A stretch of DNA of 64,000 nt. Origin: Nanobdellota archaeon. Its GTDB lineage: Archaea; Nanobdellota; Nanobdellia; Woesearchaeales; WJKV01. The position numbers and the translations under genes are program-made. The first letter of the stretch is position 1; every line of letters begins with the position of its first letter. The stretch spans positions 29,640 through 93,639 of the forward strand of contig JAGLWF010000005.1 of assembly GCA_023133595.1 (NCBI GenBank), in the 5' to 3' direction. The notes below the pieces were generated by a model that was not told where the DNA came from, searched no databases, and saw only the letters and a list, made by a program, of their open reading frames with translations. Shown in pieces: positions 14,701 through 62,533 of this stretch.

Positions 14701-15297
14701 AATTGTATCGTCCAATTCGCATTGGTCAATACCTTGTATTGTATAGGTTTCTGATGCAACTATGTTTAGGAAATTCGCATCGTCTGAGATTTCAACACCT
14801 GCAATTCCTGCACAATGACCAGAATCTCCGATTTCATCATCTGCAACAATATGTGCAACAAGATCACTGCCAGATGTTCTGTTTACTGCAAATGAAGTTA
14901 CTGTCGGTGCACTGCCATCAACAACATAAGCTTCTGATTGAGTGACACCACTGTAGGAAATGTGATAATATTCTGTTCCTTCCTCTAACGGAAGGACAAG
15001 AGATAAAGTACATAAACTGTTGCTTCCCTCTGGGACACATGATTCAAAAGAGATATTATGGAACTTGACAGCAGTAGGATCTACTCCTGCCTGCGCGATC
15101 TTGATATCAATATAGACATTTGTGTCTCTTGCATCAATCACTCTATGGATGTCATCGCTTCCATAGATGCTGACTTCTGTTATCAGGCCTGCAAAAGTAG
15201 AACTTCCCTGTGCAAATGCAAAGCTTGCATAGAACGGCAAAGTTATGATTAAGAAAATCATCAACATGCATCTACCATATCCTTTTTTCATTTCCAT
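11704..15297 (-). CDS. Giant secreted protein (1197 aa) with repeated Ig-like beta domains, a Cys-rich module and the C-terminal tail ...STTVPAGAGNLTS.
   Basis: ORF track. Signal peptide MEMKKGYGRCMLMIFLIITLPFYASFAFA. The Cys-rich CLCLPGVVYNL...C module aligns with CGCVSGVRGHL...C in the 1..4200 protein. Overlaps the 15288 gene by 10 nt. Confidence 0.7.
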   Translation of the reverse strand: MEMKKGYGRCMLMIFLIITLPFYASFAFAQGSSTFAGLITEVSIYGSDDIHRVIDARDTNVYIDIKIAQAGVDPTAVKFHNISFESCVPEGSNSLCTLSLVLPLEEGTEYYHISYSGVTQSEAYVVDGSAPTVTSFAVNRTSGSDLVAHIVADDEIGDSGHCAGIAGVEISDDANFLNIVASETYTIQGIDQCELDDTIVLEAPTSSGDYVYYARVFDRLGHLQLAQTSSALTIDVDEPQLVDARLTLNNVPVASVTVGSMSFMLEIDISENVALDDVRADITAFGGGANAPGTCTETGGVHRCRWSVVPTVTAQTTGFSGTVTATDTAGNVLNSPFTISVSVDSEEPVISAIETENGNYFGSTDNTLIAKIADAGVGFETSQTLADLRAINPVYSSGQVADLCDMNESKCYWYNLDAAGPEGSKTVVVNVRDRFGQLATKSQSFEVDLTDPVIANVTQSALAPNAGVGEPLRFYVTGTEINGVRNAIADVSAISTQIDPINGTCAMSGDDFICEFEVSGLVTSYTQGNVDFTVFDLAGNDGVFSYPVVVYSSDITTVPNEVAITVGSVIPQKLDRRISTKIPTKVFVPLHFDYSDMVEVIDKSPQCTGLDTVLYAGTDTQNPYIIGKEMDDSLLVFEILLDEATSKLENIEFNCTIYSLIARGNTVFLNPEMDNVTASIELYNLPIGDPGDNVIRKLHDIEKRVNTNFFEYVTKIEGWLDTLRKICKIGEEISRIYTVVQDMKPIVYTASMIVEWTSTGAGEELWQGFLTLDCYLRVLKETIWPNDKDYFYTKEAYEKAAKARGIKPDKFEFTDALFGGKSLGKEEDDIGGFVRRVCAFILCNQCSQGFGITGIQSIPKAFDKPVASFLGKVGVGEPGAPVPSQMKSEDETRMEARTTQPTEAVAEPPPEKKPSTGKKDDGGILGSLGSLFGLAVTDVTGAADVSMADVGQIDTSYLKEINFETRLNPMDNYIVAVDCLCLPGVVYNLNKYRQLQCIHARCITDNAKAGFSTAACDIAHAENECLFFWGPVMQLFPGFMLAKQIAGMSRDIIKELPGRIVAASRDALCTNFDNQVKMQQEAYAGGKKITQFNTAESIEQCTESNQVDAKLLNVEKNAWVLACGVFDAAMLAWSWDEFVENAIKFDVDFKSFTDKDSDQCKDAFDELEKWEREAGEAAPLAEDTSTTVPAGAGNLTS

Positions 15298-17447: not shown

Positions 17448-17511
17448 AGTAGAAGGACTAAAGTGTTCTCTAGCACCCCTTCTCATGTTCACCTTTTTGG
17501 AGGATTCAGCC

Positions 17512-23223: not shown

Positions 23224-23730
23224 ATGACAGTACTAAGCAGGAAATTTCTACAGAAGGAGATTAAGGCAAAGAGATTAGTCATAAGTCCGTATAATCCTAA
23301 GAATGTTGGTCCTGGTTCTATTGATCTGACTCTAAGCAACACAATCAGAAAGTTCAAGGAGATATGGCGGACGTTTGATGTGAATGAAGCTGCTGATTAC
23401 AAGAATATAACAGAGAAAGTAAAAATCAAAGAATATTATATAATGGAGCCAGAAGAGACAATACTTGCGATCACAAAAGAAAAAATAACATTGCCAGAAG
23501 ATTTATGCGGTTGGATCTTCACAAGAAGCAGGTTCGCAAGATTAGGCTTGATAACAGACACTTCATTTGTCCAGCCAGGAAGTTCGAACAAGCCTGTTCT
23601 GGAGATACATAATCTTGGTCCACGACCATTGGCAATATATCCAGGAACAAAAGTATGCCAGATAGTTATCGGACAGACAAAAGGTGCTGCAAAGTACAAA
23701 GGAAAGTTCAAACTACAGAAAGATGTTTAG
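23224..23730 (+). CDS. dcd: dCTP deaminase (dUTPase superfamily).
   Basis: GSIDLTLSN...RSRFARLGLITDTSFVQPGSSNKPVLEIHNLG. ORF track starts at 23167. The Met at 23224 is preferred, with a TATA at 23184-23191. Confidence 0.7.
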   Translation: MTVLSRKFLQKEIKAKRLVISPYNPKNVGPGSIDLTLSNTIRKFKEIWRTFDVNEAADYKNITEKVKIKEYYIMEPEETILAITKEKITLPEDLCGWIFTRSRFARLGLITDTSFVQPGSSNKPVLEIHNLGPRPLAIYPGTKVCQIVIGQTKGAAKYKGKFKLQKDV

Positions 23731-25391
23731 ATTTTCTTGACCATATATGGTCCTTCTTTTTTATAACCTTTCTTCTTGTAATAATTTTTCACACCAATAC
23801 CGGATATGACCACCATCTTTTTCTTTTTATTCTTCTTTGCAAGATCTTCTGCAGTCTGCAAAAGCAGCTTGCCCATCCCTTTATGCTGTATTTCTCCTCT
23901 TTTTCCGATCTGCGCAGCAGCGCCATAGACATGAAGCTCCCTTATGAGGGCAGAATCTTTTGTGATCTCTTTTCGTAGAGCTTTGGCTGGTAATCTCATT
24001 CGCAAGAAACCATAGATATGATTCCTGTCTTCGATTGAGATAAAGAATTCCTGCCCTCCAGAAGCTTCGTAATTATTGATTATCAGTTCCTGTTTGCCGT
24101 CTCGTTTGAAGTACGGCATTGGTTCCCGGCACCGGATACATTTGCATTTCCACTTTTTCTTTTTCATTTCTTTTTCAATGTACTGTCGAAGATTAGTTCT
24201 CTTGACACCAGCCTCAATCTCACGCGAAGAGATATCTCGCTGGATTCGCATTATTCTGCAGTACTCAGGGACATGTCTCTTGAAATTTGCAATCAATCTG
24301 GCAGCACTGTCTGTAGTCAATGGATTATATTCTTCATTCTTCCATCTGTCGTACAACTTTGTCCCACGAATAACCATGCACGGATAGATCTTAAGCATAT
24401 CCGGCCTGAAACTAGGATCCCAGAACAATTGCTTCATCCCTTCGAAATCTTTTTTCATGGAAAGGCCAGGAAGTCCAGGCATGTAGTGCGCATTTATCTT
24501 AAGACCAAGATCTTTCAATATCTTGAATGATTTGATAGTGTCCAGAACAGTATGCCCTCTCTCGATCTCCTGCAAAGCTTCGTCATAGACAGACTGGACT
24601 CCGACTTCAACACGAGTCGCACCTAATCTCAACATTTCATTCGCATGCTTCAGCATAGCATAATCCGGGCGTGTCTCAATTGTCAGACCAACGCATTTGA
24701 TCATAGAATCTTCATTTCTTTCCTGTTCTGTCTCAAGCTTCACATCTTTTGAAGCGCCTTTCATCTTCAGGAGCCGTTGATGGATCCGTTTCACTCTCTC
24801 AGGAGCTCCAACCTCGCCAGGCATCTCAAACAATCTTTTGAACAAATCAATGTCAAGTTCCCCATCGTCAAAGAAAACATCAGAGAAATCATTCATTGCC
24901 TTGAATGCGAATTTGATAAAGTTGTCACGATATGTTTTTGGATAAGAAATAAAAGTCCCTCCCATAATGATCAGTTCAATCTTTTCAGGAAGATGTCCCA
25001 TCACAATATATTGTTCCAGGCGATTGATAACTTGAAGATACGGATCATACTTGTTCCGGATACCACGCAATGTTGCTGGTTCGTGCCCAGTATAGGATTG
25101 AGGGACATCACCAAAAACAGAACCAACACCACCAGGACAGTAAGCGCATTTGCCGTGCGGACATTTGTAGGGCTTTGTCATGATTGCAACAACAGCAACA
25201 CCAGACCCAGTACGCACAGGTTTTGTCTTCAGTTCAACATCAGTATTCAGTTGGACCTGGATATCTGTAGGAACTTTCTTCATATTATGCTTTTTGCAGA
25301 GCTTGACTTTTAGCTTAGCTAGCTCTATCTTAGATAGTTGTTTCTGCTTCAGAGCTGTTTCTAGCTCTTTATAAAATCCAGCCTCACTCAT
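23727..25391 (-). CDS. elp3: Elp3-family radical-SAM / GNAT acetyltransferase (tRNA U34 modification).
   Basis: Radical-SAM Cys cluster KPYKCPHGKCAYCPGG, C-terminal GNAT fold (HVYGAAAQIG...GMGKLL). Size 554 aa is typical. Confidence 0.85.
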   Translation of the reverse strand: MSEAGFYKELETALKQKQLSKIELAKLKVKLCKKHNMKKVPTDIQVQLNTDVELKTKPVRTGSGVAVVAIMTKPYKCPHGKCAYCPGGVGSVFGDVPQSYTGHEPATLRGIRNKYDPYLQVINRLEQYIVMGHLPEKIELIIMGGTFISYPKTYRDNFIKFAFKAMNDFSDVFFDDGELDIDLFKRLFEMPGEVGAPERVKRIHQRLLKMKGASKDVKLETEQERNEDSMIKCVGLTIETRPDYAMLKHANEMLRLGATRVEVGVQSVYDEALQEIERGHTVLDTIKSFKILKDLGLKINAHYMPGLPGLSMKKDFEGMKQLFWDPSFRPDMLKIYPCMVIRGTKLYDRWKNEEYNPLTTDSAARLIANFKRHVPEYCRIMRIQRDISSREIEAGVKRTNLRQYIEKEMKKKKWKCKCIRCREPMPYFKRDGKQELIINNYEASGGQEFFISIEDRNHIYGFLRMRLPAKALRKEITKDSALIRELHVYGAAAQIGKRGEIQHKGMGKLLLQTAEDLAKKNKKKKMVVISGIGVKNYYKKKGYKKEGPYMVKKI

Positions 25392-38369: not shown

Positions 38370-39473
38370 TTATAAAGCTTTCGGTTTGAGCCTTTTGAGG
38401 AATTCCTGCTTGAAAGTGCTGAATTCGTTGTTTTTAATGGCTGTACGGGCATCTTCTATCATCTTCTGCATAAAATGCAGATTATGGATGGTTGCCAGTC
38501 TCAGACCCAAGGTCTCTTTGACAAAGAGGAGATGTGCTACATACGATCTTGAGAAATTCTTGCAGGTATAGCATTCGCAGCCTTCTTCGATCGGACCATA
38601 ATCGCGTTTGAATGAAGAGATCTTTATCGGCCCGTTCCCTGTGAACAATGTTCCCCTTCTTGCGTTTTTTGTTGGATAGACAGAATCAAAAATATCACAG
38701 CCGATATCAATCGCTTCAAGAATTGTATCAGGTGAACCAAGACCCATAAAATATCTTGGCTTATCTTTATCAATATGCGGCAGCTGCCAGTTTAATGCCT
38801 GCACTGCCTGTTCTTTTGACTCTCCAATTGCCAAGCCACCAAACGCAACACCGTCAAGTTTCATCTCATTAATTTTTTTCGCACTTTTTTCTCTGAGATC
38901 CTTGAAAGTTCCTCCCTGCGTGATCCCAAACAATAGTTGTTTTTCATCAGTATATTTTTTTGCGACAATACAACGCTCTGCCCATGCATGCGTTCTCTTT
39001 ACCGCGCCTGCAATATAATCATAATCCCGTCCATAATGCGGAACATCGTCAAGGCACATTGCAACATCTGCACCCAAACCATGCTGTATCTGGATAGATT
39101 TTTCTGGAGTCAATGTCTGCTTCACACCTGAGAATGGATCCCTGAATCTTATTGCTCTATCATTCAGGTCGACAAGCATTGTCTTGCTCAGAACTTGAAA
39201 ACCACCGCTGTCAGTGAAGATGCATCTGTCAAAGTTCATGTACTTGTGGATGCCACCACCCTGTTTAATAATATCAATCCCTGGTCTTAATGATAAGATA
39301 AATGCATTGCAGATGATTGCATTGACATTCATCCTGTACAATTCTTCTGGCAGCATATTCTTGACTGCGGCCTTAGTGCCGACTGGCATATAGAAAGGAC
39401 TCTCTACTTTGCCGTGCTTTGTATGCAAGACACCGCAACGTGCCCCCCCTGATTCTGCCTTTAATTCAAACAT
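38370..39473 (-). CDS. tgt: tRNA-guanine transglycosylase (QueTGT family, archaeosine-type).
   Basis: FYMPVGTKAAVK, TDSGGFQV, Zn site CECYTCKNFSRSYVAHL. Start at Met 39473 is preferred over ORF-track 39611, with a TATA at 39497-39506. Confidence 0.8.
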   Translation of the reverse strand: MFELKAESGGARCGVLHTKHGKVESPFYMPVGTKAAVKNMLPEELYRMNVNAIICNAFILSLRPGIDIIKQGGGIHKYMNFDRCIFTDSGGFQVLSKTMLVDLNDRAIRFRDPFSGVKQTLTPEKSIQIQHGLGADVAMCLDDVPHYGRDYDYIAGAVKRTHAWAERCIVAKKYTDEKQLLFGITQGGTFKDLREKSAKKINEMKLDGVAFGGLAIGESKEQAVQALNWQLPHIDKDKPRYFMGLGSPDTILEAIDIGCDIFDSVYPTKNARRGTLFTGNGPIKISSFKRDYGPIEEGCECYTCKNFSRSYVAHLLFVKETLGLRLATIHNLHFMQKMIEDARTAIKNNEFSTFKQEFLKRLKPKAL

Positions 39474-39617
39474 GGATGGTTTTAGAAATAGGCAGTTTAT
39501 ATAATTTGTCACATTTCCCTCAAAAATCACAAAATTGTGATTTTTGGGGCCCAAAATACCCAAAGGGTATTTTGTTGTATCAAAAAACATATAAAGACAG
39601 AAAATGTTCAAGGTACC

Positions 39618-41588: not shown

Positions 41589-41633
41589 TTATCGACAAAG
41601 AATTCTCCTATATAAATTTAATGAAAAAAAGAG

Positions 41634-41706
41634 TGGGTCCACCCGGATTCGAACCGGGGACCTACGCCGTGTAAGGGCGTTGTCATAACCACTAGACTAT
41701 GGACCC
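41634..41706 (-). tRNA. tRNA-Val(UAC).
   Basis: Manual fold GGGTCCA...ACGCC-CTTACAC-GGCGT...CCCGG-TTCGAAT-CCGGG-TGGACCC-A. Anticodon TAC. Confidence 0.8.
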
Positions 41707-41708
41707 AA

Positions 41709-41863
41709 TGAGCCCGAGGGGACTTTCATAGAAACAAAAGGGTTTTGGATTAAAAGTTTTCTGCTTCTGTTTTGAACCCCTGACCACTGGCTGTCTTAGT
41801 CAACTCTGATACCAGAGCGTGGACATATAAGACCAGCGCTCCACCAGACTAAGCTACGGGCTC
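41709..41863 (-). tRNA. Candidate tRNA (anticodon UAU, Ile-like) with two introns: ~33 nt at 37/38 in the anticodon loop and ~48 nt in the T-loop.
   Basis: 5' exon GAGCCCG-TA-GCTT-AGTCTGGTG-GAGC-G-CTGGT-CTTATA, 3' part A-GCCAG-TGGTC-AGGGG-TTCAAAA...[48 nt]...CCCCT-CGGGCTC-A. All four stems pair only if both inserts are removed. Confidence 0.5.
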
Positions 41864-41924
41864 GTGATTATGTCTGATAGTCAAATGGTTGCTTATAAAA
41901 GTTGCGATATAAAAACCGCAATAA

Positions 41925-47735: not shown

Positions 47736-47818
47736 TCCTTGAGTATTAAAATAACTCAATATCATTCCGAAATCCTTTTATATTGAGTTCCATCCTTCGC
47801 CTTATCGGAGAGGAAATG

Positions 47819-49618
47819 GGGAAGATACAAGAACTGCCAATAGATCTCATCAACAAGATCGCAGCTGGCGAAGTCATTGAACGGCCTGCTTCTGTTGTCA
47901 AAGAATTGATAGAGAACTCTATAGATGCAGGTGCGCAGAATATTATTATTGAAGTGAAAGAAGGCGGCAAGTCTTTTATCCGCATCCAGGATGATGGTTC
48001 TGGCATGTCATCAGAAGATGCAGAGCTCGCAATAAAAAAACATACAACTTCTAAGATAAAAACATCAGGAGATCTGTTTCGTATCTCATCTTTAGGCTTT
48101 CGCGGTGAAGCTTTGGCATCGATCGCAGCAGTTTCCCGCATGGAAATGCTCACAAAAACACAATTAGACACAGAAGGTCTCGAGCTCGAGATTGAAAACG
48201 GGGAGATAAAAAATAAAAAACCAGCTGGAGTGCCGATCGGGACAACAATCAAGATTTATGGTTTATTTTACAACACTCCTGCACGAAAAAAGTATATGAA
48301 AGATATCCCTGTTGAATTCTCGCACATTGCAGATGTTGTGACAAAGTACGCGCTTGCATATCAAGGGATCGGCTTCAGGTTAGTGCACAATGGAAAAGAT
48401 ATTCTTTTTGCACCAAAAACTCCTGATAGATTAGGAAATGTTGTGAACATCTACGGACGCGAGCTTGCAAAAGAGATGATCCCTATCAATAAAGAGACTG
48501 AAAATTTCAAAGTGCGGGGCTTTATCGGCAAACCAACAATAAATCGCGCAGACAAATCAATGATCATCACGTTTATCAATCATCGTTACATCCGGAATCA
48601 AAAAATTAATGCAGCAATTGTGGATGCATATGCAAATCTCCTGAACACAGGACGTTATCCTATTGTAATTCTAAATTTTGAGATTCCAAAAGAAAAGATT
48701 GACGTGAATGTCCATCCAACAAAGATTGAAGTGCGGATCGAGAAAGAAGATATTGTCTGTTTTGAGATAAAGGATGCGATCAAATCAGAATTGGAATCAA
48801 TAAGTCTTGTTCCAAAAGCAGATCCAGCAAAACTAGTGCAATCACAAATACCAAGCTCATTACCACAGACAGATATTAGAAATATTCTACGGAACAAAGA
48901 AGCATTATTAAATCAAATGGAACAGTTTAAGAACAGACCTATCGATGTCGAGCAAAGCACACAGAAACAATTGACACTGAGCGAGAAAGAAGGTATTGTG
49001 ATCACACCGATCACAGTTGAAAATGCGGCGTACAATGTTATTGGTAGAATTCATAAAACATACATCCTAGTTGAAACAATGAATGGCCTGCGCCTGATAG
49101 ACCAGCATGCTGCACACGAACGTATTGTTTACGAAGAAGTTCTTGAAAAATATTCAAAGAATGCTGTGAAAGTCCAGGAATTGCTCCAGCCAGTGCAGCT
49201 GAAACTGAATATTGCAGAGCATGTCCTTGTGAAAAACAACAAAGAGAAGCTGAAAGAGTTCGGATTCACACTGGATGAGATCAGTGGAAATACTCTGGTC
49301 CTGCGGACAGCACCTTCAATCCTGGGAAAGCAGCAGAGTCCAGAACTGTTCATGGACCTGGTTGCAGAACTGAAAAAGGAGAAGGATAAGAAGATTTCAA
49401 CTATCACAGAAGATATTCTTGCCCGGGTCGCGTGCAGAAGAGCTGTAAAAGCCGGAGACATCCTGGAAAAAGTAGAGATGTCAACTCTTGTAAAGCAGTT
49501 GATGCAGTGCAAACAACCTCATTCATGCCCGCATGGCAGACCGACAATGATAGATTTCACAATCCGTGACCTTGAGAAAAGTTTCAACAGGATTCGTGGA
49601 TTTGAAACTAATGCCTAA
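47819..49618 (+). CDS. mutL: DNA mismatch repair protein MutL, endonuclease-proficient type.
   Basis: GHKL ATPase N-terminus LPIDLINKIAAGEVIERPASVVKELIENSIDAG. C-terminal DQHAAHERIVYEE (DQHA(X)2E(X)4E) and CPHGRP motifs. Confidence 0.9.
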   Translation, partial: GKIQELPIDLINKIAAGEVIERPASVVKELIENSIDAGAQNIIIEVKEGGKSFIRIQDDGSGMSSEDAELAIKKHTTSKIKTSGDLFRISSLGFRGEALASIAAVSRMEMLTKTQLDTEGLELEIENGEIKNKKPAGVPIGTTIKIYGLFYNTPARKKYMKDIPVEFSHIADVVTKYALAYQGIGFRLVHNGKDILFAPKTPDRLGNVVNIYGRELAKEMIPINKETENFKVRGFIGKPTINRADKSMIITFINHRYIRNQKINAAIVDAYANLLNTGRYPIVILNFEIPKEKIDVNVHPTKIEVRIEKEDIVCFEIKDAIKSELESISLVPKADPAKLVQSQIPSSLPQTDIRNILRNKEALLNQMEQFKNRPIDVEQSTQKQLTLSEKEGIVITPITVENAAYNVIGRIHKTYILVETMNGLRLIDQHAAHERIVYEEVLEKYSKNAVKVQELLQPVQLKLNIAEHVLVKNNKEKLKEFGFTLDEISGNTLVLRTAPSILGKQQSPELFMDLVAELKKEKDKKISTITEDILARVACRRAVKAGDILEKVEMSTLVKQLMQCKQPHSCPHGRPTMIDFTIRDLEKSFNRIRGFETNA

Positions 49619-51952: not shown

Positions 51953-53866
51953 TTATTCAGAATCAGGTTTCTCTTCTGGCTTCTTCTTTACTATACGAAC
52001 CACTCTCAACTTTCTGATCGGCTGGCCAGTTACCTGCTGGATACCAAGATTTTTCATCTGTTCCTGGTCTGGACTATCAAAATATTGGCTGGAAAATTTC
52101 AGATAAGCGCCAGCATATTCCGGAAATTTTTCAGGAGCATCCTTTCTTGCATCCTGTGCTTTTTCATAAATCTGGGTTTGGATCTCTTCAAACTTTGCTG
52201 GTCCGCATTCTTCTGGAAATGTTTTGCACAGAGCTGCATACCACTCTGCATATGCCATCATCCTACTAAGATCTTCTTGTTGAAGTGCATTTTCAACTTG
52301 AGTGTATAGCTCATCGCGTTTTTCGATTATCTTTGGAACATCAATCTTGTGCCTTTTTGCTTCAGATTTAGCAATCTCTTCAATATCTGCTGGCTTAAAA
52401 TCCTCTGGGACATACAGAATGAATCTATCATATTCATTCTTATAAATATCAATTAATCCAGGAATGTTTCTGAAATCTAGATCCTGGAATCTTCTTTGCA
52501 TATCATCTCTAAATCCATCAAGATGTCCAACAATATTCTCTCTATACCTCTGATCAATATCTTTTGTTAGATCTAACTTAACATTTACATCTGGGAAGTA
52601 TTCACCCCATTTCTCATACAATATCTTGTTGTTCTCTAGCAACTCATCCACAGTTTTATCTTTACAAGCTTCTGCAGCTTCCATAATTTTAATTCTAGTA
52701 GCTTCCAATACCTCCTTTAGCAATCGTTCTGACTGCCTTAGGAATCGTTCGTAGTGTGTATATAGTCTGCTTGGGCTCAGTTGCGCTTTTTGAGCTGCAA
52801 GCTCTATTGTTTCAGAGATATTTGTCAAAAGGGTTGTCAATGTTTTTGGTCCAGGCAATTCTTTGATCTGGAATGGATCCATATCATTGATCATCTCATC
52901 TATAGCATTCTCATAGAACTGCCGGTCTGGATTGAACAGGACAAGCTCTTCAAATCTATCATTTGGATCCCCTCTTGCATTTTGAGCATAATCATCATTT
53001 ATCAGAACTGCACATTCTTCTAATAAGAAAAGCATTCTTCGCAATGCAGTTGGTCTTCCACCCAAAGAAGGTTTGTTCACTTCTACCTTTCTTGCCTCTC
53101 TTAGAACTTTTGCTTCATATCCACGAATCTCTTTCTCACGCAAATTCTTCAACTGATCTATATATTGCTCCTTATCTTTTGGATTTTCTGAATCTCTCAG
53201 ATCCCGGATTAAATAATTTATTCTATCAGCAAAAATATGGAATTGGCTCACTCCAAATGGAAATTCACGTATCAGGGTTGCTTTATTCATCTCATATGGT
53301 TCAATCTTACCTTTGCTTATTGCTTTGTCTAATTCTCTAAACAAGAATTCAGCCAATCTTTTGTTAGTAATCTTTCTTATAATGTGATCATCAGGATTTA
53401 CAGTCACTCCTTCCTTTTGCAATGCTTGAAAATCTGATTGGACTTCTTTTACAAAAAAATTAAGCATAAATCTGTATTTGCAGTTGAAAGTCTTAGGATA
53501 GAACCCTAATTTTCTTGCAAGCCTGCCATCAAGAGTGACAGGAGATTCATAATCCATATTAAAGATATTTCTTCTATGCATCAGGTATGTGATCCAGGCT
53601 TCTGTTTCAATTTTTTCTCTCCATTCAGGTGAGAATCGTTCTTCTAACGCAGGCTTCACATCTCTCCAGGCGCCTTCAAAAGTCTGATCAATGGTTTTCA
53701 ATGCGTCAAGCATCTCTTTTCTAGCAGCTCCATTTTTTCTATGTGCAGATCCTTCAAGAATATCAGATTGGGCTTCTATTGTTTTGCTAGCTCTATCTAG
53801 CCTATTATCATATCGTATTAATAATTTGTATAAGCCCATATTGCGCCTCTTATAGGAATCTACCAT
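51953..53866 (-). CDS. Hypothetical all-alpha cytoplasmic protein (637 aa).
   Basis: ORF track. No recognisable catalytic motifs. Confidence 0.5.
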   Translation of the reverse strand: MVDSYKRRNMGLYKLLIRYDNRLDRASKTIEAQSDILEGSAHRKNGAARKEMLDALKTIDQTFEGAWRDVKPALEERFSPEWREKIETEAWITYLMHRRNIFNMDYESPVTLDGRLARKLGFYPKTFNCKYRFMLNFFVKEVQSDFQALQKEGVTVNPDDHIIRKITNKRLAEFLFRELDKAISKGKIEPYEMNKATLIREFPFGVSQFHIFADRINYLIRDLRDSENPKDKEQYIDQLKNLREKEIRGYEAKVLREARKVEVNKPSLGGRPTALRRMLFLLEECAVLINDDYAQNARGDPNDRFEELVLFNPDRQFYENAIDEMINDMDPFQIKELPGPKTLTTLLTNISETIELAAQKAQLSPSRLYTHYERFLRQSERLLKEVLEATRIKIMEAAEACKDKTVDELLENNKILYEKWGEYFPDVNVKLDLTKDIDQRYRENIVGHLDGFRDDMQRRFQDLDFRNIPGLIDIYKNEYDRFILYVPEDFKPADIEEIAKSEAKRHKIDVPKIIEKRDELYTQVENALQQEDLSRMMAYAEWYAALCKTFPEECGPAKFEEIQTQIYEKAQDARKDAPEKFPEYAGAYLKFSSQYFDSPDQEQMKNLGIQQVTGQPIRKLRVVRIVKKKPEEKPDSE

Positions 53867-54777: not shown

Positions 54778-55491
54778 TTAACCTCCTCCAAGATAGAGCT
54801 TTGCAACATCCTTGTTTCTCAGCATATCTTTTCCTTTACCGTGCATCTTATTTTTTCCTAATTCGAGAACATACGCACGATCAGAAATATTCAATGACAT
54901 CTTTGCGTTCTGCTCAACAATAACCATTGCAACCCCATCTTTATTGACTTCAATTAATTTTTCAAAAATCAAAGCTTTCATCTGCGGAGATAGACCTAAA
55001 GAAGGTTCGTCAAGCAAAAGAAGTTTAGGTTTTAACATTAAAGCTCGACCGATCGCAACCATCTGCTGCTCACCACCTGATAACAGGCCCGCTTTTTGAT
55101 CTTTTCTTTCTTTTAATCCAGGAAATTTTTTGTAAACAGATTCGATATCCTCAGAGAGATCATCTTTTCGTATGAAACCCCCCATCTCTAGGTTTTCTTG
55201 TACAGTTAGGTTAGGAAAAACAGATCTTCCTTGAGGTACATATGTGATTCCCAGCTTTGTGAGGTTCTCAGGCTTACTTTTTATTATATTTTTTCCGTCG
55301 AAAAATATTTTTCCTTTTCTTTTTTCTATCAATCCAAAGATATTCTTCAATATTGTGGATTTTCCAGCACCATTCGGACCGATTATAGAGACTATTTCAC
55401 CTTTATCAATATGCATCTTCACTTCATGAAGCACTTGCATCTGCCCATACCAGGAATCAAGGTCTTTTATTGTCAATAGATGTTTCGTCAT
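54778..55491 (-). CDS. livF: Branched-chain amino acid ABC transporter ATP-binding protein LivF.
   Basis: Walker A GPNGAGKST, signature LSGGEQQ, Walker B LLLLDEPS. Confidence 0.85.
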   Translation of the reverse strand: MTKHLLTIKDLDSWYGQMQVLHEVKMHIDKGEIVSIIGPNGAGKSTILKNIFGLIEKRKGKIFFDGKNIIKSKPENLTKLGITYVPQGRSVFPNLTVQENLEMGGFIRKDDLSEDIESVYKKFPGLKERKDQKAGLLSGGEQQMVAIGRALMLKPKLLLLDEPSLGLSPQMKALIFEKLIEVNKDGVAMVIVEQNAKMSLNISDRAYVLELGKNKMHGKGKDMLRNKDVAKLYLGGG

Positions 55492-55505
55492 TTTTATTTT
55501 TTTCC

Positions 55506-56282
55506 TTATTTTTTCTTCCTCCTCTTTATCTTTATCACTTTCCCAAGATATGCATCTAAAACACGCTTATTCTTCTGTATCTTTTTCGGAGGCCCTTCTG
55601 CAATCTCCTCTCCACCATCCATAACAACAACTTTGTCAGCAATCTTCATGACAAAATCCATATTATGCTCGACAAACAGAATAGTTTTTCCTTTTTTCTT
55701 CAATTCTTTCAGAAGATTAGTGATCTTTTTCAGCATAGTTGGATTCACACCAGAAGCAGGCTCGTCTAGCAGCAAAAGTTCTGGTTCGCTCGCAAGTGCT
55801 TTTGCCATCTCCAACAATTTTTGCTGGCCATAACTCAAATTTCCAGCCAATGCATTCTTTTTACCTTCAAGATCCACAAACTTCAACAATTCAAGAGCAT
55901 CATTCACCATCTTTGCTTCGTGCAATTTTTTCTGTTTTAATGGAAGCATCGACAGCCAAAAATTTTCATATACATTCTGCATTGAAAGCATCATATTCTC
56001 TAATACAGTCATCTTTGGAAACAGACGGATTATCTGAAAAGTTCTTGAAACTCCTTCTTTGCTTATTCGATATGGGGCCATTCCAGTTATATCTTTGTTG
56101 TACAACAAAACTTTTCCTTTATCAGGCTCGATGAAACCAGTGATGAGATTGAATACAGTGGTTTTTCCAGCACCATTAGGTCCGATCAATGCAACAATTG
56201 CTCCTTTCTCTACTTCAAAACTGCATCCATCAACAGCTTTCACACCACCAAAGTGTTTATAGAGCTTCTTTACTTTTAGCAT
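55506..56282 (-). CDS. livG: Branched-chain amino acid ABC transporter ATP-binding protein LivG.
   Basis: GPNGAGKTT, LSYGQQK, LLLLDEP. Start at the Met giving MLKVKKLYKHFGG. Confidence 0.85.
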   Translation of the reverse strand: MLKVKKLYKHFGGVKAVDGCSFEVEKGAIVALIGPNGAGKTTVFNLITGFIEPDKGKVLLYNKDITGMAPYRISKEGVSRTFQIIRLFPKMTVLENMMLSMQNVYENFWLSMLPLKQKKLHEAKMVNDALELLKFVDLEGKKNALAGNLSYGQQKLLEMAKALASEPELLLLDEPASGVNPTMLKKITNLLKELKKKGKTILFVEHNMDFVMKIADKVVVMDGGEEIAEGPPKKIQKNKRVLDAYLGKVIKIKRRKKK

Positions 56283-57165
56283 GTCTGAACCTCCATTCTC
56301 CAAATATTCCATTTGGTTTGTAAATCATCAATAAAATCAATAACGCAGCATAAATCATAACGCGCAATGCAGCTGCCATCGAAGTAGGCAGTCCTAAAAA
56401 TCTTAATGGTTCTGGAAGCAAAACTAAGATTGTCGCACCAATCACAGAACCTCTTATCGATGCTACTCCTCCAAGAACAACCATACATACTATGAGAATA
56501 GTCTCCATTAATGTGAATGTTGTTGGATCAATGAATGTTATGTGGTGCGCGAACAATGAACCAGCAATACCTGCACAGGCAGCACCAGTAATTACAACAA
56601 TCACTTTGTACTTCTTGATATTCTTTCCAATTGCTTGCGCAGCAATCTCGTCTTCTCTAATCGCGCGCAAAACCCGGCCAAAAGGAGATTTTACAATCTT
56701 TGAAACAAACAAGACAACAAGTATTGCAATAATCAATGCAAATATGAAGAATTGAAACTTTGTTGTCAAAGTCAATCCAAAGAAAGAAATCTTTGGAATT
56801 CCAGGCAGACCTAACGGCCCTCTAGTAAGCGAGACCCAATTCTTCATCACAGCTCTCGCTATCTCTCCAAATCCTAAAGTCGCGATTGCAAGATAATCTC
56901 CTCTTAATTTCAATGAAGGATATGCAATCATTGCACCGCCCAAGCCTGCGAAAAATACAGCTGCAATAAAACATATCCAGTAAGGATATCCAGCTAATGC
57001 TAATAATGCAGACGCATATGCACCTATTCCGAAAAATGCAGCATGACCTAGATTAAGCATGCCAGAGTAACCAATAATAAGGTTAAGACTGACTGAAAGG
57101 ATCACATATATGCAAATTAATATCAGCAAATTCAATGCATAATTGCTTGCAAAAAATTCCAGCAT
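56257..57165 (-). CDS. livM: Branched-chain amino acid ABC transporter permease LivM.
   Basis: Polytopic membrane protein. Position and similarity. Confidence 0.8.
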   Translation of the reverse strand: MLEFFASNYALNLLILICIYVILSVSLNLIIGYSGMLNLGHAAFFGIGAYASALLALAGYPYWICFIAAVFFAGLGGAMIAYPSLKLRGDYLAIATLGFGEIARAVMKNWVSLTRGPLGLPGIPKISFFGLTLTTKFQFFIFALIIAILVVLFVSKIVKSPFGRVLRAIREDEIAAQAIGKNIKKYKVIVVITGAACAGIAGSLFAHHITFIDPTTFTLMETILIVCMVVLGGVASIRGSVIGATILVLLPEPLRFLGLPTSMAAALRVMIYAALLILLMIYKPNGIFGEWRFRHAKSKEAL

Positions 57166-58052
57166 TATACACTAACCTCCTCTCCTTTTTTCACACCGAA
57201 AATTCCAGTCGGCTTGAACAATAAGAAGAATAACAATACTGCGAATGCAATCGCATCTTTGTATCCAGACGGAATAAACCAGATACCAATGTTTTCAATC
57301 AAACCAATCATGAATCCTCCTAATACTGCCCCGTAGATATTACCGATACCGCCGACAACAGCTGCTGTGAAGCTCTTGATGCCAATAGAGACACCCATTG
57401 TCGGTGTCAGGTTTTGTTCCATGCCAACCAATATGCCTCCTGCAGCTGCCAAAGCAGAGCCAATAATGAAAACATATGAGATAACTTTATTAGGATTAAT
57501 TCCGACAATGGACGCAACTTCATAATTATCAGCAACAGCACGCATTGCTTTTCCTGTTTTTGTATATTTGATATAAAAGTGTAATGCAACCATCAATGCG
57601 ACTGAGACAATAATGATCACAATTTGAATCTTTGTGATAATAGCATCAATAAAAGGGATTGTAATGCCCCGCACAACCTCTCCTGTCCTGAACGTCCTGA
57701 TCTGCGCGCCAAAAATTAATATTGCCAATGCCTGCAAAAAAAGCGAGATACCAATCGCAGTTATTAACGGAGGCAGCATGCCACGGCCACGCAAAGGTTT
57801 GTACGCTATTTTGTCAATTACAAAACCAGCAACAGCGCACCCCAGCATTGCCAATACTCCAGCAACAATAACATTCACACCTAAAAGAATATTAAAGACC
57901 CACCCAAGATACGCGCCAAGCATGAACACTTCTCCATGCGCAAAGTTTATGAACCTCAGAATTCCATACACCATTGTATAGCCAAGCGCGACTAATGCAT
58001 ATATTCCACCAGCTATAATACCATTAATAATGAGCTGTGCTGCTATTCCCAT
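57165..58052 (-). CDS. livH: Branched-chain amino acid ABC transporter permease LivH.
   Basis: Polytopic membrane protein. 1-nt overlap with livM. Confidence 0.8.
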   Translation of the reverse strand: MGIAAQLIINGIIAGGIYALVALGYTMVYGILRFINFAHGEVFMLGAYLGWVFNILLGVNVIVAGVLAMLGCAVAGFVIDKIAYKPLRGRGMLPPLITAIGISLFLQALAILIFGAQIRTFRTGEVVRGITIPFIDAIITKIQIVIIIVSVALMVALHFYIKYTKTGKAMRAVADNYEVASIVGINPNKVISYVFIIGSALAAAGGILVGMEQNLTPTMGVSIGIKSFTAAVVGGIGNIYGAVLGGFMIGLIENIGIWFIPSGYKDAIAFAVLLFFLLFKPTGIFGVKKGEEVSV

Positions 58053-58130
58053 CCGAAGCCTCTTTCATATGTACGAATAGAATATGATTTATAAATATAT
58101 AGGAAAAATAAAAAAGTAAAAAAGAAGATT

Positions 58131-59267
58131 TTATTCCAGATCTACAAATTCTCCATTCTCTACTCTCATCAATATCAATTCTTTGATAGCATCACCATTT
58201 TCATCGATTGTCAGCTTGCCACCTGCACCAGTATAATCTGTAACGGTGTAGAGGTAATCCTTGATTTCAGTTCCGGTTATATGTCCTTGTTTCATTGCAT
58301 CTGCAAACAAATAGACTACATCATAAGCATTTGCAGAATATGATGTCAATTCAGGTTTGTACCCAAATCGATCATTGAATTTCTGCAAAAACTCTGCGGT
58401 TTTTGGAGCGGCTTCATCAAATGTTGGTGTTGAAACCACCATTCCTTCTGCAGCTTCTCCAGAATCTACTAAAACTTTGTCAACACACATTGACTCTGGT
58501 GCAAACACTGGAAGATCTACATCTAATTCTTTCATTTGAACCAAGATGATTGTTCCGTCTGCAGGATAAGGAACTAGATAAAGAGCTTCTGGAGCAGCGT
58601 CTTTGATTTTTGTGATCTGAGTTCTCATATCTTTTGCATCCTGTTCATAATTTTGTTCAACGACAATTTCTCCGCCAAGTTCTGTGAATTTTTTAGAGAA
58701 AACATTTCGAAGACCAAGATTATAATCACTATTTGCGTACATTATAGCAACTTCTCTGTATCCTTCATCGTACATATAGATTGCCATTATTTCTCCCTGC
58801 AATGCGTCTGAAGGACATGCTCTAAAGATATAATCCCCAGATTCTGTAATATCAGCATTTGTGCTTCCAGGACTCATTAAAACAACTTTAGCTTCTTCTG
58901 CAATTGGTGCAACAGCCAAAGTTTCAGACGAACAGAAACCTCCGACAATTGCCTGGACTTTATCTATCTCAATTAATTTTTGAGCTGCATTTGTTGCATC
59001 TTTTGGTTTGCACAGGCCATCTTCTGGAACCAGCTCAAGCATTCTTCCATTGATTCCGCCAGCTGTATTTATTTCTTCAACAGCAAGTAATGCACCGTCC
59101 CGCCATCCTTCACCGTAAGGTGCAACATCTCCTGTCAACGGTCCGATGAAACCAATTTTTATCGGTTCTTTTGTTTCTTCCCCAGCAGGTTGCATCTCTG
59201 TCGGAGCACATCCAACCACAAGAATCGTTATTAATAAAATTGACATCAAAATCATATAGTTTTTCAT
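58131..59267 (-). CDS. Lipoprotein substrate-binding protein (type I periplasmic binding fold, Liv-like), copy 1.
   Basis: Signal plus lipobox ILVVGCAP, then the IKIGFIGPLTGDVAPYGE motif. Confidence 0.8.
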   Translation of the reverse strand: MKNYMILMSILLITILVVGCAPTEMQPAGEETKEPIKIGFIGPLTGDVAPYGEGWRDGALLAVEEINTAGGINGRMLELVPEDGLCKPKDATNAAQKLIEIDKVQAIVGGFCSSETLAVAPIAEEAKVVLMSPGSTNADITESGDYIFRACPSDALQGEIMAIYMYDEGYREVAIMYANSDYNLGLRNVFSKKFTELGGEIVVEQNYEQDAKDMRTQITKIKDAAPEALYLVPYPADGTIILVQMKELDVDLPVFAPESMCVDKVLVDSGEAAEGMVVSTPTFDEAAPKTAEFLQKFNDRFGYKPELTSYSANAYDVVYLFADAMKQGHITGTEIKDYLYTVTDYTGAGGKLTIDENGDAIKELILMRVENGEFVDLE

Positions 59268-59271
59268 ATTA

Positions 59272-60381
59272 TCACTCCCCCAATTTTATAAATTTTCCCT
59301 CTTTTACTGTTTTGATTATTGGTGGTTTTGCAACATCACCGTTCTCATCAAAAGTGGTAATGCCGCTAACGCCTGGAAAATTTTTAGTTGAGTATAATGC
59401 GTTTTTGATTGTTTCACTGTCAATACCGTTTTCCATGGCCTGTGCGATAATTTTAAGCGCATCGTATGCAGTCGCTGCGAATATCTCGCTTTGTTTGCCA
59501 TATTTTGCTTGGAACCTTTCCTGGTATCCCTTAGCTTCTCCTCTTGCCTCATCTATTGCAAAAGAAGAATAATACAAACCTTCTAACGCGTCGCCAGCAA
59601 TACCCAAAGCTTCTTCTGATTCTGCAGTACTTACTGATAATGTTTGTGCGTCTAATCCTATTTCTTTTATCTGCGTTACGATTCTAGCAATCTCATTGGT
59701 GTATCCTCCAATAAAGATAGAATCAGGATTCGCAGATTTTATTTTTGTTAGTTGTGTTCTGAAATCAGCGCTCTCCTGCTCGTATGATTCGATAGCAACT
59801 ATATTTCCATCAAAATTTTCATTGAAGATATCCCTCAAGCCAAGACCGTAATCATTATTCACATAAATTATTGCTGCTGTTTTGTATCCTTTTTTGTTCG
59901 CGAATTCTGCCATTGCGCCAGCTTCAAAAATGTCGGATGGCCAATTTCTAAAGACATAATCGCCAGCGTCTGTTATCTTCGGGCTTGATGATGCTGTGGA
60001 CATCAGAATAATTTGTGCCTCTTCTGCAACAGAAGCCATAGTGAGAGTTGCGCTTGAGCAAATCTCTCCGATTACAACAGAAACTTTGTCAACTGTTATC
60101 AATTTTTGAATCGCATTCAATGCTTCTTTTGGCATGCATTTTCCATCTTCGTAAATAAGCTCGATTTGTTTACCATTAACTCCACCTTTTGCATTGATCT
60201 CATCTTTTGCAAGCTCAAGCCCTTCTTGGGTCCATTCACCAAAATTAGAAGCATCGCCTGTAAGCGGAGTTACAACTCCTATCTTGATTTTTTCTTCTGC
60301 CGGAACCACTTCAACTGGACCACATCCAGCTATTAGAATTGCTATTAATAGAATTGATACTAAAATTAGATATTTATTCAT
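59272..60381 (-). CDS. Lipoprotein substrate-binding protein (Liv-like), copy 2.
   Basis: Start moved to the Met at 60381 (MNKYLILVSILLIAILIAGCGP). The ORF-track N-terminal extension overlaps the next gene. Confidence 0.8.
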   Translation of the reverse strand: MNKYLILVSILLIAILIAGCGPVEVVPAEEKIKIGVVTPLTGDASNFGEWTQEGLELAKDEINAKGGVNGKQIELIYEDGKCMPKEALNAIQKLITVDKVSVVIGEICSSATLTMASVAEEAQIILMSTASSSPKITDAGDYVFRNWPSDIFEAGAMAEFANKKGYKTAAIIYVNNDYGLGLRDIFNENFDGNIVAIESYEQESADFRTQLTKIKSANPDSIFIGGYTNEIARIVTQIKEIGLDAQTLSVSTAESEEALGIAGDALEGLYYSSFAIDEARGEAKGYQERFQAKYGKQSEIFAATAYDALKIIAQAMENGIDSETIKNALYSTKNFPGVSGITTFDENGDVAKPPIIKTVKEGKFIKLGE

Positions 60382-60437
60382 ATTTATAACCCCCATATGG
60401 TGTATATAGCTATTTAAGGACTTTATATACTTTTCGT

Positions 60438-60704
60438 TTACATTCCTATAGAAAGCAGCAGAAATAGTATGGTGAATATGATCTGTACAGCCAAACATAA
60501 TCCAACAACAATCACAGTTCCAGTCAATCGGATCTGCCTGAAGCATAAGATTCCGCCGATCATCGCAATAATTATTCCCACCAGGAATCGATACATAAGA
60601 AGAACATAATTATGTCCAAGAGCGGCAGTGCCAAGATACAGTCCGCCAACTGCGCCAAACACTATGCCCAGGACAATTGCCCACAGGTAATCAAAAAATC
60701 CCAT
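60438..60704 (-). CDS. Small membrane protein (88 aa, 2-3 TM helices).
   Basis: ORF track. Hydrophobic. Confidence 0.45.
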   Translation of the reverse strand: MGFFDYLWAIVLGIVFGAVGGLYLGTAALGHNYVLLMYRFLVGIIIAMIGGILCFRQIRLTGTVIVVGLCLAVQIIFTILFLLLSIGM

Positions 60705-61292
60705 CTACTTTGTCCTCCGCGATTTTACTTCAAGTTTTCCATCCATAAGTTTGATTGTTCTGTAATCTCCTTCTTCATCAAAATCCTTAAACTCAAGATC
60801 AAATGTTCCCTGCATCTTGTCAACATCATCAATTATAACCCATCCAGAAGATTCATCTGCCTGGAATACTTCTTCAATCTTATCTTCGCCTTCATAAGTT
60901 GTGATGACTTCTCTATAATTTGCAGAGGCTCTGCTGATATCGCAGACCAGATTTTGAATATCAACTTTTGTTCCTTCAACCAAAGATTTTGCATCTTTGA
61001 TCATGAACGTCAGTTCAACTGACATGAACTGGTTTTTCGAAACCTGTTTTTCATCTTTTAGTTTTATGAGTGTTGTTTTTCCATCCGCTGCAAGTGTCGG
61101 CTTATAATCCCACTCGCTCTGGATCTTGAACGGTCCAGTAGAACCAGCTTTTGTCATTGTCGCAGAAGCAATAACTTCATATTCTATATTCACTAAACCT
61201 AATCTAGGTTCTAATCGATAAGCAATACCAAACAATAGAACAACTATTATTATCACCAGAACAAATTTTAATTGTTTGCCAATAAAGCCCAT
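60705..61292 (-). CDS. N-terminally membrane-anchored protein (~195 aa) of unknown function.
   Basis: Start at the internal Met (MGFIGKQLKFVLVIIIVVLLFGIAY). Confidence 0.45.
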   Translation of the reverse strand: MGFIGKQLKFVLVIIIVVLLFGIAYRLEPRLGLVNIEYEVIASATMTKAGSTGPFKIQSEWDYKPTLAADGKTTLIKLKDEKQVSKNQFMSVELTFMIKDAKSLVEGTKVDIQNLVCDISRASANYREVITTYEGEDKIEEVFQADESSGWVIIDDVDKMQGTFDLEFKDFDEEGDYRTIKLMDGKLEVKSRRTK

Positions 61293-61353
61293 CTTACCTC
61301 TATATAGGCAGATGTTTTCCTTTATAAATCTATTGAAAAAGAAAAAGAAAAAA

Positions 61354-62445
61354 TTATTCCAAAGGAACAATTTCTTTGTCTGTAATCACTTTCAACATGA
61401 AGTCTTTATGCGTATCTCCATTTTGATCAATTGTTATCTTTCCAGCCAATGTTTCCTTATCATTGAAATCGTAAAGATATTCTTTGATAGCATCTGCATC
61501 ATAGCCAACTTCTTCAATTGCTTCAGCAATAATACCAACAGCTGCTGCAGACTCAAGCATATAAGCGATTGCTGGAGCTTCTATTCCATATCGCTCTTCG
61601 TATCTTTCATTGAATTCTTCCAATCTTTTTTGATCAAGCTTTGGAGTTGCAAATATCATTCCTTCAACAATTTCATTGTGTGAAAGTATTTCCGGTGTTT
61701 CAAAAGCTGAATTGCCATAAATCGGAATTTCAAAACCTAATTCCTTATACTGGATAACTAATGCCTCTGCAGGATCAATTCCTTGTGTAATAATAAACAA
61801 AACTTCGGGTTTTGCAGCTTTGATCTTTGTCAAAATTGTCCTGAAATCTCGTTCATCTGGAGAAAATTGTTCATGAGCAACAACTTCTCCATCAAAGTAT
61901 TCTTTGAATTGCACAGGAATTGCAATTGCATAATCAGTTTGTTCATTAATGATTGCAATCTTCTTGAAACCTTGTTTGTTCATGTGCTCTGCGATAATTT
62001 GGCCTTCCATGTTTAATGGAGAATTTCTGAAAACATAATCCCCAGCATCTGTAACAGCCGGACTTGTTGTGATCGAAGCAAAAAGGATTACTTTGTTCTC
62101 ATTTGCAATCGGTGCTGCTGCCAATGTTTCAGGAGTACAATGGCCTCCAAGAACAACTTCTACCTTATCATGATGGACAAGCTTTTGCATTGCTAAAGTC
62201 GCTGTTTTTGAATTGCATTCCCCATCTTCAACTATCAATTCTATGGGTTTTCCATTAATACCTCCTTCTGCATTAATTCTATTAACTTCTAACATAGCAG
62301 ATCTTAGTGCAGGTTCACCATATGGAGCTACAGGTCCAGTTAAAGCTGAAATCCAGCCTATTTCAATGCTATCGCTCTCAAGAGTCTGGCCACACCCAGT
62401 AACCAGGAACAAGATTACCATAATTATTGCGATTAATTTCTTCAT
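61354..62445 (-). CDS. Lipoprotein substrate-binding protein (Liv-like), copy 3.
   Basis: MKKLIAIIMVILFLVTGCGQ ... IGWISALTGPVAPYGE. Confidence 0.8.
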   Translation of the reverse strand: MKKLIAIIMVILFLVTGCGQTLESDSIEIGWISALTGPVAPYGEPALRSAMLEVNRINAEGGINGKPIELIVEDGECNSKTATLAMQKLVHHDKVEVVLGGHCTPETLAAAPIANENKVILFASITTSPAVTDAGDYVFRNSPLNMEGQIIAEHMNKQGFKKIAIINEQTDYAIAIPVQFKEYFDGEVVAHEQFSPDERDFRTILTKIKAAKPEVLFIITQGIDPAEALVIQYKELGFEIPIYGNSAFETPEILSHNEIVEGMIFATPKLDQKRLEEFNERYEERYGIEAPAIAYMLESAAAVGIIAEAIEEVGYDADAIKEYLYDFNDKETLAGKITIDQNGDTHKDFMLKVITDKEIVPLE

Positions 62446-62533
62446 TTTGATCACCCTCAATATCGTTACTACTTTTTGATGTGAGAGTATATTTAAATAT
62501 TAGCTACCCCTAAAGTAGTATGTAATGAGAGAA

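Follow-up and report, generated by a model that had tools for sequence, protein, structure and literature searches.

The minus strand of the window (the whole 64,000-nt stretch of DNA analysed here, part of a Woesearchaeota (DPANN) contig) carries at 41863..41709 a 155-nt pre-tRNA-Ile(UAU) gene that is interrupted by two introns, and this locus very probably functions as the gene from which a Woesearchaeota archaeon makes its AUA-decoding tRNA-Ile(UAU). Read 5' to 3', the gene begins GAGCCCG UA GCUU AGUCUGGUG GAGC G CUGGU CUUAUA (33 nt) A GCCAG UGGUC and continues AGGGG UUCAAA (48 nt) U CCCCU CGGGCUC A, followed by UU and then by tRNA-Val(UAC). An acceptor stem (GAGCCCG/CGGGCUC), U33, the anticodon UAU, A37 and A73 are all present on reading of the sequence. 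A previous sequence-only reading of this DNA had described a 155-nt minus-strand stretch adjoining tRNA-Val, and the stretch is as it was described, with the spacer UU between the two genes. The coordinates of the features are collected in Table 1.

The tRNA nature of the locus was assessed with ARAGORN and with the Rfam tRNA covariance model. Removal of both inserts (window 41793-41825 and 41723-41770) yielded a 74-nt perfect cloverleaf that ARAGORN called as tRNA-Ile(tat), with all stems perfect and the conserved tRNA nucleotides in place. In default mode ARAGORN made no tRNA call at the locus when one insert or none was removed, so the earlier statement that the cloverleaf appears only in the doubly spliced sequence was borne out. 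An insert of about 33 nt at 37/38 had also been proposed; in both the ARAGORN splice and the Rfam alignment, the insert started directly after A37. The proposed anticodon UAU was likewise obtained with ARAGORN and Rfam, and U33, A37 and A73 by sequence reading. The covariance model was run with Infernal on a 381-nt stretch with permissive filters, and RF00005 matched exactly 41709-41863 (-) over model positions 1-71 with a score of 42.5 bits (gathering score 29; E = 6.9e-08). The alignment contained inserts of 34 nt after A37 and 49 nt after UUCAAA. This Infernal check, which the earlier reading had recommended, showed that the tRNA model covers the whole of the unspliced gene, its inserts falling at the two expected places. 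When the whole window was searched, ARAGORN in default mode and with the intron option reported tRNA-Gly and tRNA-Val only. An Rfam scan of the 64-kb window at the gathering threshold also reported only tRNA-Gly and tRNA-Val, and missed the tRNA-Ile(UAU) gene because of its speed filters, not because of the score.

Table 1 Features of the interrupted tRNA-Ile(UAU) gene and its flanks, in window coordinates.
Feature	Position	Strand	Description and evidence
Complete pre-tRNA-Ile(UAU)	41709..41863	-	155 nt, CCA not encoded; RF00005 42.5 bits, ARAGORN on spliced 74-mer
Exon 1, tRNA positions 1-37	41826..41863	-	Acceptor 5' strand, D arm, anticodon stem 5' strand, loop to A37; identical in L002
Anticodon U34 A35 U36, reads AUA	41827..41829	-	ARAGORN, Rfam
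Intron 1, 33 nt, position 37/38 (canonical)	41793..41825	-	Strict hBHBh'
Exon 2, tRNA positions 38-59	41771..41792	-	A38, anticodon stem 3' strand, variable loop UGGUC, T stem AGGGG, UUCAAA
Intron 2, 48 nt, position 59/60 (non-canonical)	41723..41770	-	4-bp central helix, strict 3' bulge, relaxed 5' bulge
Exon 3, tRNA positions 60-73	41709..41722	-	U60, T stem CCCCU, acceptor CGGGCUC, discriminator A73
Spacer UU, 2 nt, tRNA-Ile to tRNA-Val	41707..41708	-	Conserved in L002
tRNA-Val(UAC), intronless, downstream partner	41634..41706	-	ARAGORN; Rfam 71.9 bits
TTTTATAA, putative archaeal TATA box, ~30 nt upstream of G1	41893..41900	-	Inferred
Run of 7 T, 3 nt past tRNA-Val, putative oligo-T terminator	41624..41630	-	Inferred; T run also in L002

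The window encodes the archaeal ribosomal proteins L1, L10/P0, P1, S24e, S27 and L11, as well as Spt4, an Rpb7-like subunit, a TGT-family tRNA-guanine transglycosylase, FtsZ and MutL, and its G+C content is about 39%. In a search with the L1 protein, the closest species-representative genomes were all labelled Candidatus Woesearchaeota, and the nearest of them (L002, JAHWHI01) encodes an L1 protein that is 85% identical. The host is archaeal, and the mechanism to consider is therefore protein-dependent splicing of the archaeal kind. The archaeal endonuclease recognizes two 3-nt bulges that lie on opposite strands, 4 bp apart, and cuts after the second bulge nucleotide (PMC5829648).

Intron 1 is a canonical-position archaeal bulge-helix-bulge (BHB) intron, with a strict hBHBh' motif at 37/38. 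Its central helix consists of 4 bp formed between C32-A35 (CUUA) and UAAG of the intron, and both flanking bulges are 3 nt long, with U36 A37/U on the 5' side and A C/A38 on the 3' side (the slash marks the junction). The anticodon stem serves as the outer helix, and the inner helix (GUC/GAC) leads into a 5-bp hairpin (CUCUG/CAGAG). Cuts at the positions defined by the motif leave the mature anticodon loop CUUAUAA.

The position of intron 2 was examined by comparing all T-loop junctions from 53/54 to 61/62 that preserve a 7-nt loop. Only 59/60 joined 4/4 central pairs to a 5-bp outer helix, and the remaining junctions were rejected. The BHB geometry therefore places the second junction at 59/60 and gives the mature T loop UUCAAAU. 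The sequence-only reading was right about an insert of about 48 nt in the T loop, but the junction that it gave, 60/61, did not hold, and its mature loop UUCAAAA differs by 1 nt from the loop defined by the geometry. With 48 nt taken out at 59/60, the standard arm AGGGG-UUCAAAU-CCCCU is restored. The 5-bp T stem forms the outer helix, UUCA(54-57) pairs with UGAA as the central helix, and the 3' bulge, A G/U60, is strict. The 5' bulge reads A58 A59/A, followed by a C-A mismatch and then by a 10-bp inner helix; it can alternatively be drawn as 4 nt facing 1 nt, and either way it is not a clean 3-nt bulge. We classed it as relaxed because the C-A mismatch follows AA/A, and since it is imperfect, cleavage requires an endonuclease that tolerates relaxed motifs. 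Intron 2 is accordingly a relaxed-BHB, non-canonical intron, located outside 37/38 and possessing one strict bulge and a 4-bp helix. BHB motifs at both junctions, on which the earlier reading had staked its proposal, were found, strict in intron 1 and relaxed at the 5' bulge in intron 2. The cloverleaf with both motifs folded at -50.3 kcal/mol compared with -54.8 for the unconstrained minimum free energy structure, which indicates that both BHB motifs can coexist in the precursor.

Two other identities were considered for the inserts. Bacterial-type group I tRNA introns are some 200 nt or more in length and have a conserved P1-P9 ribozyme core. A group I intron was rejected here, as the inserts are just 33 and 48 nt long, the host is archaeal and no group I match was obtained in Rfam. 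A box C/D guide RNA within the introns was also rejected, the C box (UGAUGA) being absent from both introns on reading.

The nearest genome, L002, carries the same tRNA-Ile(UAU) gene at the corresponding location. Its three exons show 100% identity to those of the window, while intron 1 differs by one inserted A, and intron 2 has conserved stem ends and a rewritten loop (AAACUUUUAAUCCAAAACC against GGUUUUUAUUUGGAUGC). Identical exons combined with diverged intron loops form the pattern that would be expected of a functional interrupted gene. A degraded pseudogene had been named beforehand as the outcome that would tell against the proposal, and the comparison spoke the other way, with exons identical in L002 despite 85% L1 identity and with intron loops that differ. 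The L1-protein search covered four Woesearchaeota loci, and the tRNA beside L1 was kept in the closest of them (L002) only; in L003-L005, no tRNA was found next to L1. A block approximately 30 nt upstream of G1, CGCAACTTTTATAAG, was also kept between the window and L002, whereas the surrounding spacer has diverged. This block would suit an archaeal TATA box followed by a short leader, an assignment drawn wholly from general knowledge of archaeal promoters. The 2-nt spacer between tRNA-Ile and tRNA-Val and the T run after tRNA-Val suggest that the two genes may form a single dicistronic transcript.

The neighbouring tRNA-Val also differs between these close relatives. L002 tRNA-Val(UAC), at 1738-1859 (-), has a 49-nt insert at 37/38 and scored 55.9 bits with Rfam, whereas the window copy (41634-41706) is otherwise near-identical and lacks the insert. 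The BHB of the L002 insert is relaxed, CUUA/UCAG forming 3/4 pairs with a U34-C mismatch. Presence of the tRNA-Val intron is thus a difference between the window and L002.

Homologues of the window gene were collected from metagenomes with a 20-nt query taken from the tRNA 5' half (GGTNGAGCGCTGGTCTTATA), the sequence after the anticodon being unconstrained. The scan returned 84 loci, from which we left out a chance match (L036), a bacterial locus (L058), two genes cut off by contig ends and one that could not be parsed. The parsed set, with the window and L002 included, comprised 81 genes, 68 of them unique (66 from the scan plus the window and L002). Because the 20-nt query was fixed, these homologues represent one related clade and not all archaeal tRNA-Ile(UAU) genes. 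The query was able to find intronless copies, and the sole intronless tRNA match was the bacterial gene. That gene, at L058 1350-1427 (-), is a bacterial-type intronless tRNA-Ile(UAU) with an encoded CCA and an GGTTCGAATCC T arm, on a G+C-rich contig.

An intron at 37/38 was present in 68/68 unique archaeal genes, with lengths of 18-73 nt. Its central helix had 4/4 pairs in 47 genes, 3/4 in 20 and 2/4 in 1, and the intron nucleotides opposite CUUA in the 47 fully paired genes were UAAG, UAGG, UGAG or UGGG. A73 was found in 81/81 parsed homologues. An insert in the T loop, 15-89 nt long, occurred in 12/68 unique genes, the window and L002 counted. The best junction was 59/60 in 12/12 of these, with UUCA opposite UGAA or UGAG and with 4/4 central pairs in 10 genes and 3/4 in 2. 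Splicing gave the T loop UUCAAAU in all 12, and the same loop was present in 52 homologues without a T-loop insert. The bodies of the 59/60 introns were not alignable between lineages; either this site was colonized repeatedly, or an old intron has diverged fast and has often been lost. As judged by sequence comparison, recurrence in L002 and in 66 further unique metagenome genes places the architecture far beyond chance.

Covariation was assessed in 48 distinct spliced 74-mers. Changes on both sides were seen in 10/21 pairs, and 99.7% of cells were paired in the cloverleaf compared with 32-50% in controls in which the 3' partner was slid by 1-3 columns, although the percentage paired leans towards structure because complementarity was used in part to place the 3' strands of the T and acceptor stems. 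The search pattern fixed the D and anticodon stems, and the informative covariation consists of the both-sided changes in the acceptor and T stems.

Copies of the tRNA 3' end were observed downstream of several homologues. The last 11 nt of the tRNA recurred 35-211 nt downstream in L009, L014, L019, L022, L023, L031, L043 and L069; no such downstream repeat was found in the window. On L009 (1991-2396), the repeated block is 17 nt long (AAAUCCCCUCGGACUCA, positions 57-73) and bounds each of two perfect 111-nt units and two 93-nt units (97% matches). The extra copy in L023 and L043 resembles a T arm interrupted at 59/60, without a BHB. These downstream copies may represent older 3' ends that were displaced, or scars left by small integrating elements.

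Isoleucine identity was examined on three related contigs (L009, L048 and L071). A few kb from the UAU gene, each of them carries a tRNA-Ile(GAU) that has no intron and does not vary between the three. The GAU tRNA and the spliced UAU tRNA of these contigs match at 68/74 positions, and the differences all fall in or beside the anticodon arm. The window product matched this tRNA-Ile(GAU) at 64/74 positions, compared with 45 and 47 matched positions for the tRNA-Val and tRNA-Gly of the window, respectively. The existence of this UAU/GAU isoacceptor pair means that Ile identity is well supported. Codon usage was counted in 44 window ORFs. AUA accounted for 436 of 18,218 codons (23.9 per 1000), a count equal to that of AUG, and for 29% of Ile codons, so that a tRNA dedicated to reading AUA is required. 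No TiaS-like domain was found among the window genes checked by look-ups and Pfam scans (64 kb of genome), and ARAGORN found no tRNA with a CAU anticodon in the window or in 555 kb of related loci. By analogy with other archaea, these results would be consistent with tRNA-Ile(UAU) replacing tRNA-Ile2(CAU)/TiaS in this genome. ARMAN-2, -4 and -5 have tRNA-Ile(UAU), and both TiaS and tRNA-Ile(CAU) are absent from them (PMC3239211); the same situation has been described for Nanoarchaeum and Korarchaeum (PMC8450103, PMC6000648). Literature searches on TiaS in DPANN and on UAU in Woesearchaeota returned nothing specific.

Several other explanations of the locus were weighed against a functional interrupted gene. 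If it were a decaying tRNA pseudogene, broken by two random insertions and yielding no functional tRNA, the failure of ARAGORN, with or without the intron option, and of the whole-window Rfam gathering scan to report anything there would be accounted for. A decaying gene is nevertheless barely credible, as every stem is intact, the conserved tRNA nucleotides are retained, both inserts contain BHB motifs, and the exons have stayed the same in L002 while spacers, intron loops and proteins diverged; the same arrangement is moreover present in 10 other unique genes whose intron sequences are unrelated. A quite improbable alternative is that only the 37/38 intron is real and the T-loop insert is a mobile-element scar, with the gene disabled or the tRNA bearing an extra arm. 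The relaxed 5' bulge of the 59/60 motif would be in keeping with such a scar, as would the repetition of the tRNA 3' end downstream in related loci, which indicates that the site attracts insertions or rearrangements. The pairing of UUCA(54-57) is difficult to reconcile with a scar, however, since UGAA/UGAG lies exactly 2 nt before the 3' junction in 10/12 genes and the other two still form 3/4 pairs. Although the intron bodies show no relationship to one another and vary in length between 15 and 89 nt, their excision always gives UUCAAAU, and the downstream scar copies seen elsewhere have no BHB motif. In addition, a relaxed 59/60 motif is cleaved in vitro by the EndA of ARMAN-2 (PMC3239211).

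The remaining alternative accepts the gene and its splicing and questions the product, which could be charged with Met or another amino acid, or could read AUG besides AUA. The identity was assigned from sequence, and an unmodified U34 could in principle wobble with G. Against this, the body of the tRNA differs very little from that of tRNA-Ile(GAU) on related contigs, A73 is invariant, and the bacterial and archaeal tRNA-Ile(UAU) species described elsewhere are documented Ile acceptors or AUA decoders (PMC3575796, PMC3239211, PMC8450103). We regard a product other than an AUA-reading tRNA-Ile as very improbable.

With tRNA-Ile(UAU) taken as functional, its expression and maturation can be outlined. 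The gene and the adjacent tRNA-Val would probably be co-transcribed from the TATA-box promoter approximately 30 nt upstream. In the precursor, the anticodon loop would pair with the 3' part of intron 1 to form the first BHB, and T-loop positions 54-57 would pair with the 3' part of intron 2 to form the second. An archaeal EndA would then cut each bulge and an RNA ligase would join the three exons. RNase P, RNase Z and the CCA-adding enzyme would finish the tRNA, which is predicted to be 74 nt long before CCA addition, and its anticodon would presumably be modified. The spliced tRNA would be charged by IleRS and would read AUA. EndA (tRNA_int_endo) and RtcB gave no match among the genes of the 64-kb window checked by look-ups and Pfam scans. 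The EndAs of DPANN archaea are reported to be of the alpha4, (alpha-beta)2 or epsilon2 type with other insert loops, and insert-bearing EndAs have been reported across DPANN lineages (PMC5829648).

The closest known system is that of ARMAN-2 (Ca. Micrarchaeum, DPANN), in which Fujishima et al. (2011) described a pre-tRNA-Ile(UAU) containing a 25-nt intron at 37/38 (PMC3239211). That gene and the window gene share a DPANN host, a genomically encoded UAU anticodon and a strict hBHBh' at 37/38 (PMC3239211). It was proposed to replace tRNA-Ile(CAU)/TiaS, neither of which is present in those genomes, and was cleaved by EndA in vitro (PMC3239211). The ARMAN-2 tRNA-Ile(UAU) has a single intron, whereas the Woesearchaeota gene has a second intron at 59/60 and an intron 1 of 33 nt. 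A counterpart to intron 2 is found in ARMAN-2 pre-tRNA-Cys(GCA), which contains a 13-nt intron at 59/60 that is likewise relaxed and has one imperfect bulge (PMC3239211, PMC12397907). The tRNA-Cys intron is shorter and forms a bulge-helix-loop, in contrast to the 48-nt window intron with its 10-bp inner helix and two recognizable bulges. ARMAN-2 EndA cuts both the 37/38 intron of tRNA-Ile(UAU) and the 59/60 intron of tRNA-Cys in vitro (PMC3239211, PMC12397907).

More distant parallels exist in other archaea and in eukaryotes. Nanoarchaeum equitans and Korarchaeum cryptofilum encode an 'Ile3' tRNA with a genomic UAU, and tRNA-Ile2(CAU) is not needed (PMC6000648, PMC8450103). In Korarchaeum the UAU gene has an intron and its GAU relative does not, the same contrast that was observed on L009, L048 and L071. 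These organisms belong to phyla other than that of the window, and a T-loop intron is not reported for them in PMC6000648 or PMC8450103. Thermoproteales and other archaea possess multi-intron tRNA genes with 2-3 BHB introns, at non-canonical positions too (PMC8450103, PMC5829648); genes of the Thermoproteales type need a broad-specificity endonuclease and occur in TACK lineages with an (alpha-beta)2 EndA. The earlier claim that genes such as this one are known only from a few lineages such as Nanoarchaeum, Korarchaeum and Thermoproteales was too narrow, as the ARMAN case dates from 2011 (PMC3239211) and 68 unique genes were found here. A eukaryotic tRNA-Ile(UAU) gene is also interrupted in the anticodon loop and the T arm, but by three introns, and Pus1-type pseudouridylation of its U34 and U36 is linked to the presence of an intron. 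In yeast, according to work cited in PMC9602550, tRNA-Ile(UAU) acquires its pseudouridines at positions 34 and 36 on the intron-containing precursor only. Each element of the window gene has a precedent, and the novelty is modest: both introns together in a Woesearchaeota tRNA-Ile(UAU), and the breadth of the family in metagenomes.

The persistence of the 37/38 intron raises the question of its function. It was never lost in the set, and the 59/60 site is occupied repeatedly, so that these genes provide material for studying tRNA intron function. Most neighbouring tRNA genes (Glu, Gly, Val) are intronless, as are the tRNA-Ile(GAU) genes on L009, L048 and L071. The 37/38 intron is always paired to C32-A35, with U36 and A37 left unpaired in a bulge. 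By analogy with the eukaryotic tRNA, the 37/38 intron might be obligatory in archaeal tRNA-Ile(UAU), where a modification of the anticodon that depends on the intron would stop UAU from reading AUG. This reading is offered because 68/68 genes keep the intron, nearby GAU genes are intronless and the query could find intronless copies; we think it unlikely, but if true, the obligatory intron would solve the AUA problem in a eukaryote-like way. A further effect of the 59/60 intron may be to interrupt an integration site at the tRNA 3' end, an idea prompted by the recurrence of 3'-end copies downstream of relatives that are free of this intron.

These results are of practical value for the annotation of DPANN genomes. 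Without the tRNA-Ile(UAU) gene, annotation of this genome would seem to show no decoder for AUA, and DPANN tRNA sets look incomplete because disrupted genes escape detection (PMC5829648). Intron-containing tRNA-Ile(UAU) is common in environmental archaea and is not confined to two or three genomes.

Other genes in the window may be relevant to tRNA metabolism. A gene for a protein with Radical_SAM and Radical_SAM_C domains is located at 23727-25391 (-); it looks Elp3-like and would be a candidate U34-modifying enzyme. The TGT-family tRNA-guanine transglycosylase is encoded at 38370-39611 (-), and position 15 of tRNA-Ile(UAU), where archaeosine usually occurs, is a G. The gene at 17566-19722 (-) encodes a class I aminoacyl-tRNA synthetase that has MetRS-type domains.

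The rest of the window contains several further features. Very large minus-strand ORFs of 637-1362 aa lie at 6865-10953, 11704-15297, 15288-17492, 4197-6176 and 51953-53866, and no Pfam match for them was on record or obtained in scans. For ORF 55506-56312, a look-up of encoding contigs gave nothing on record. A bacterial-type MutL is encoded at 47783-49618 (+). A branched-chain amino-acid type ABC transporter cluster occupies 54778-62460 (-) and comprises two ATPases, two permeases and three paralogous periplasmic binding proteins, which is notable for a small DPANN genome.
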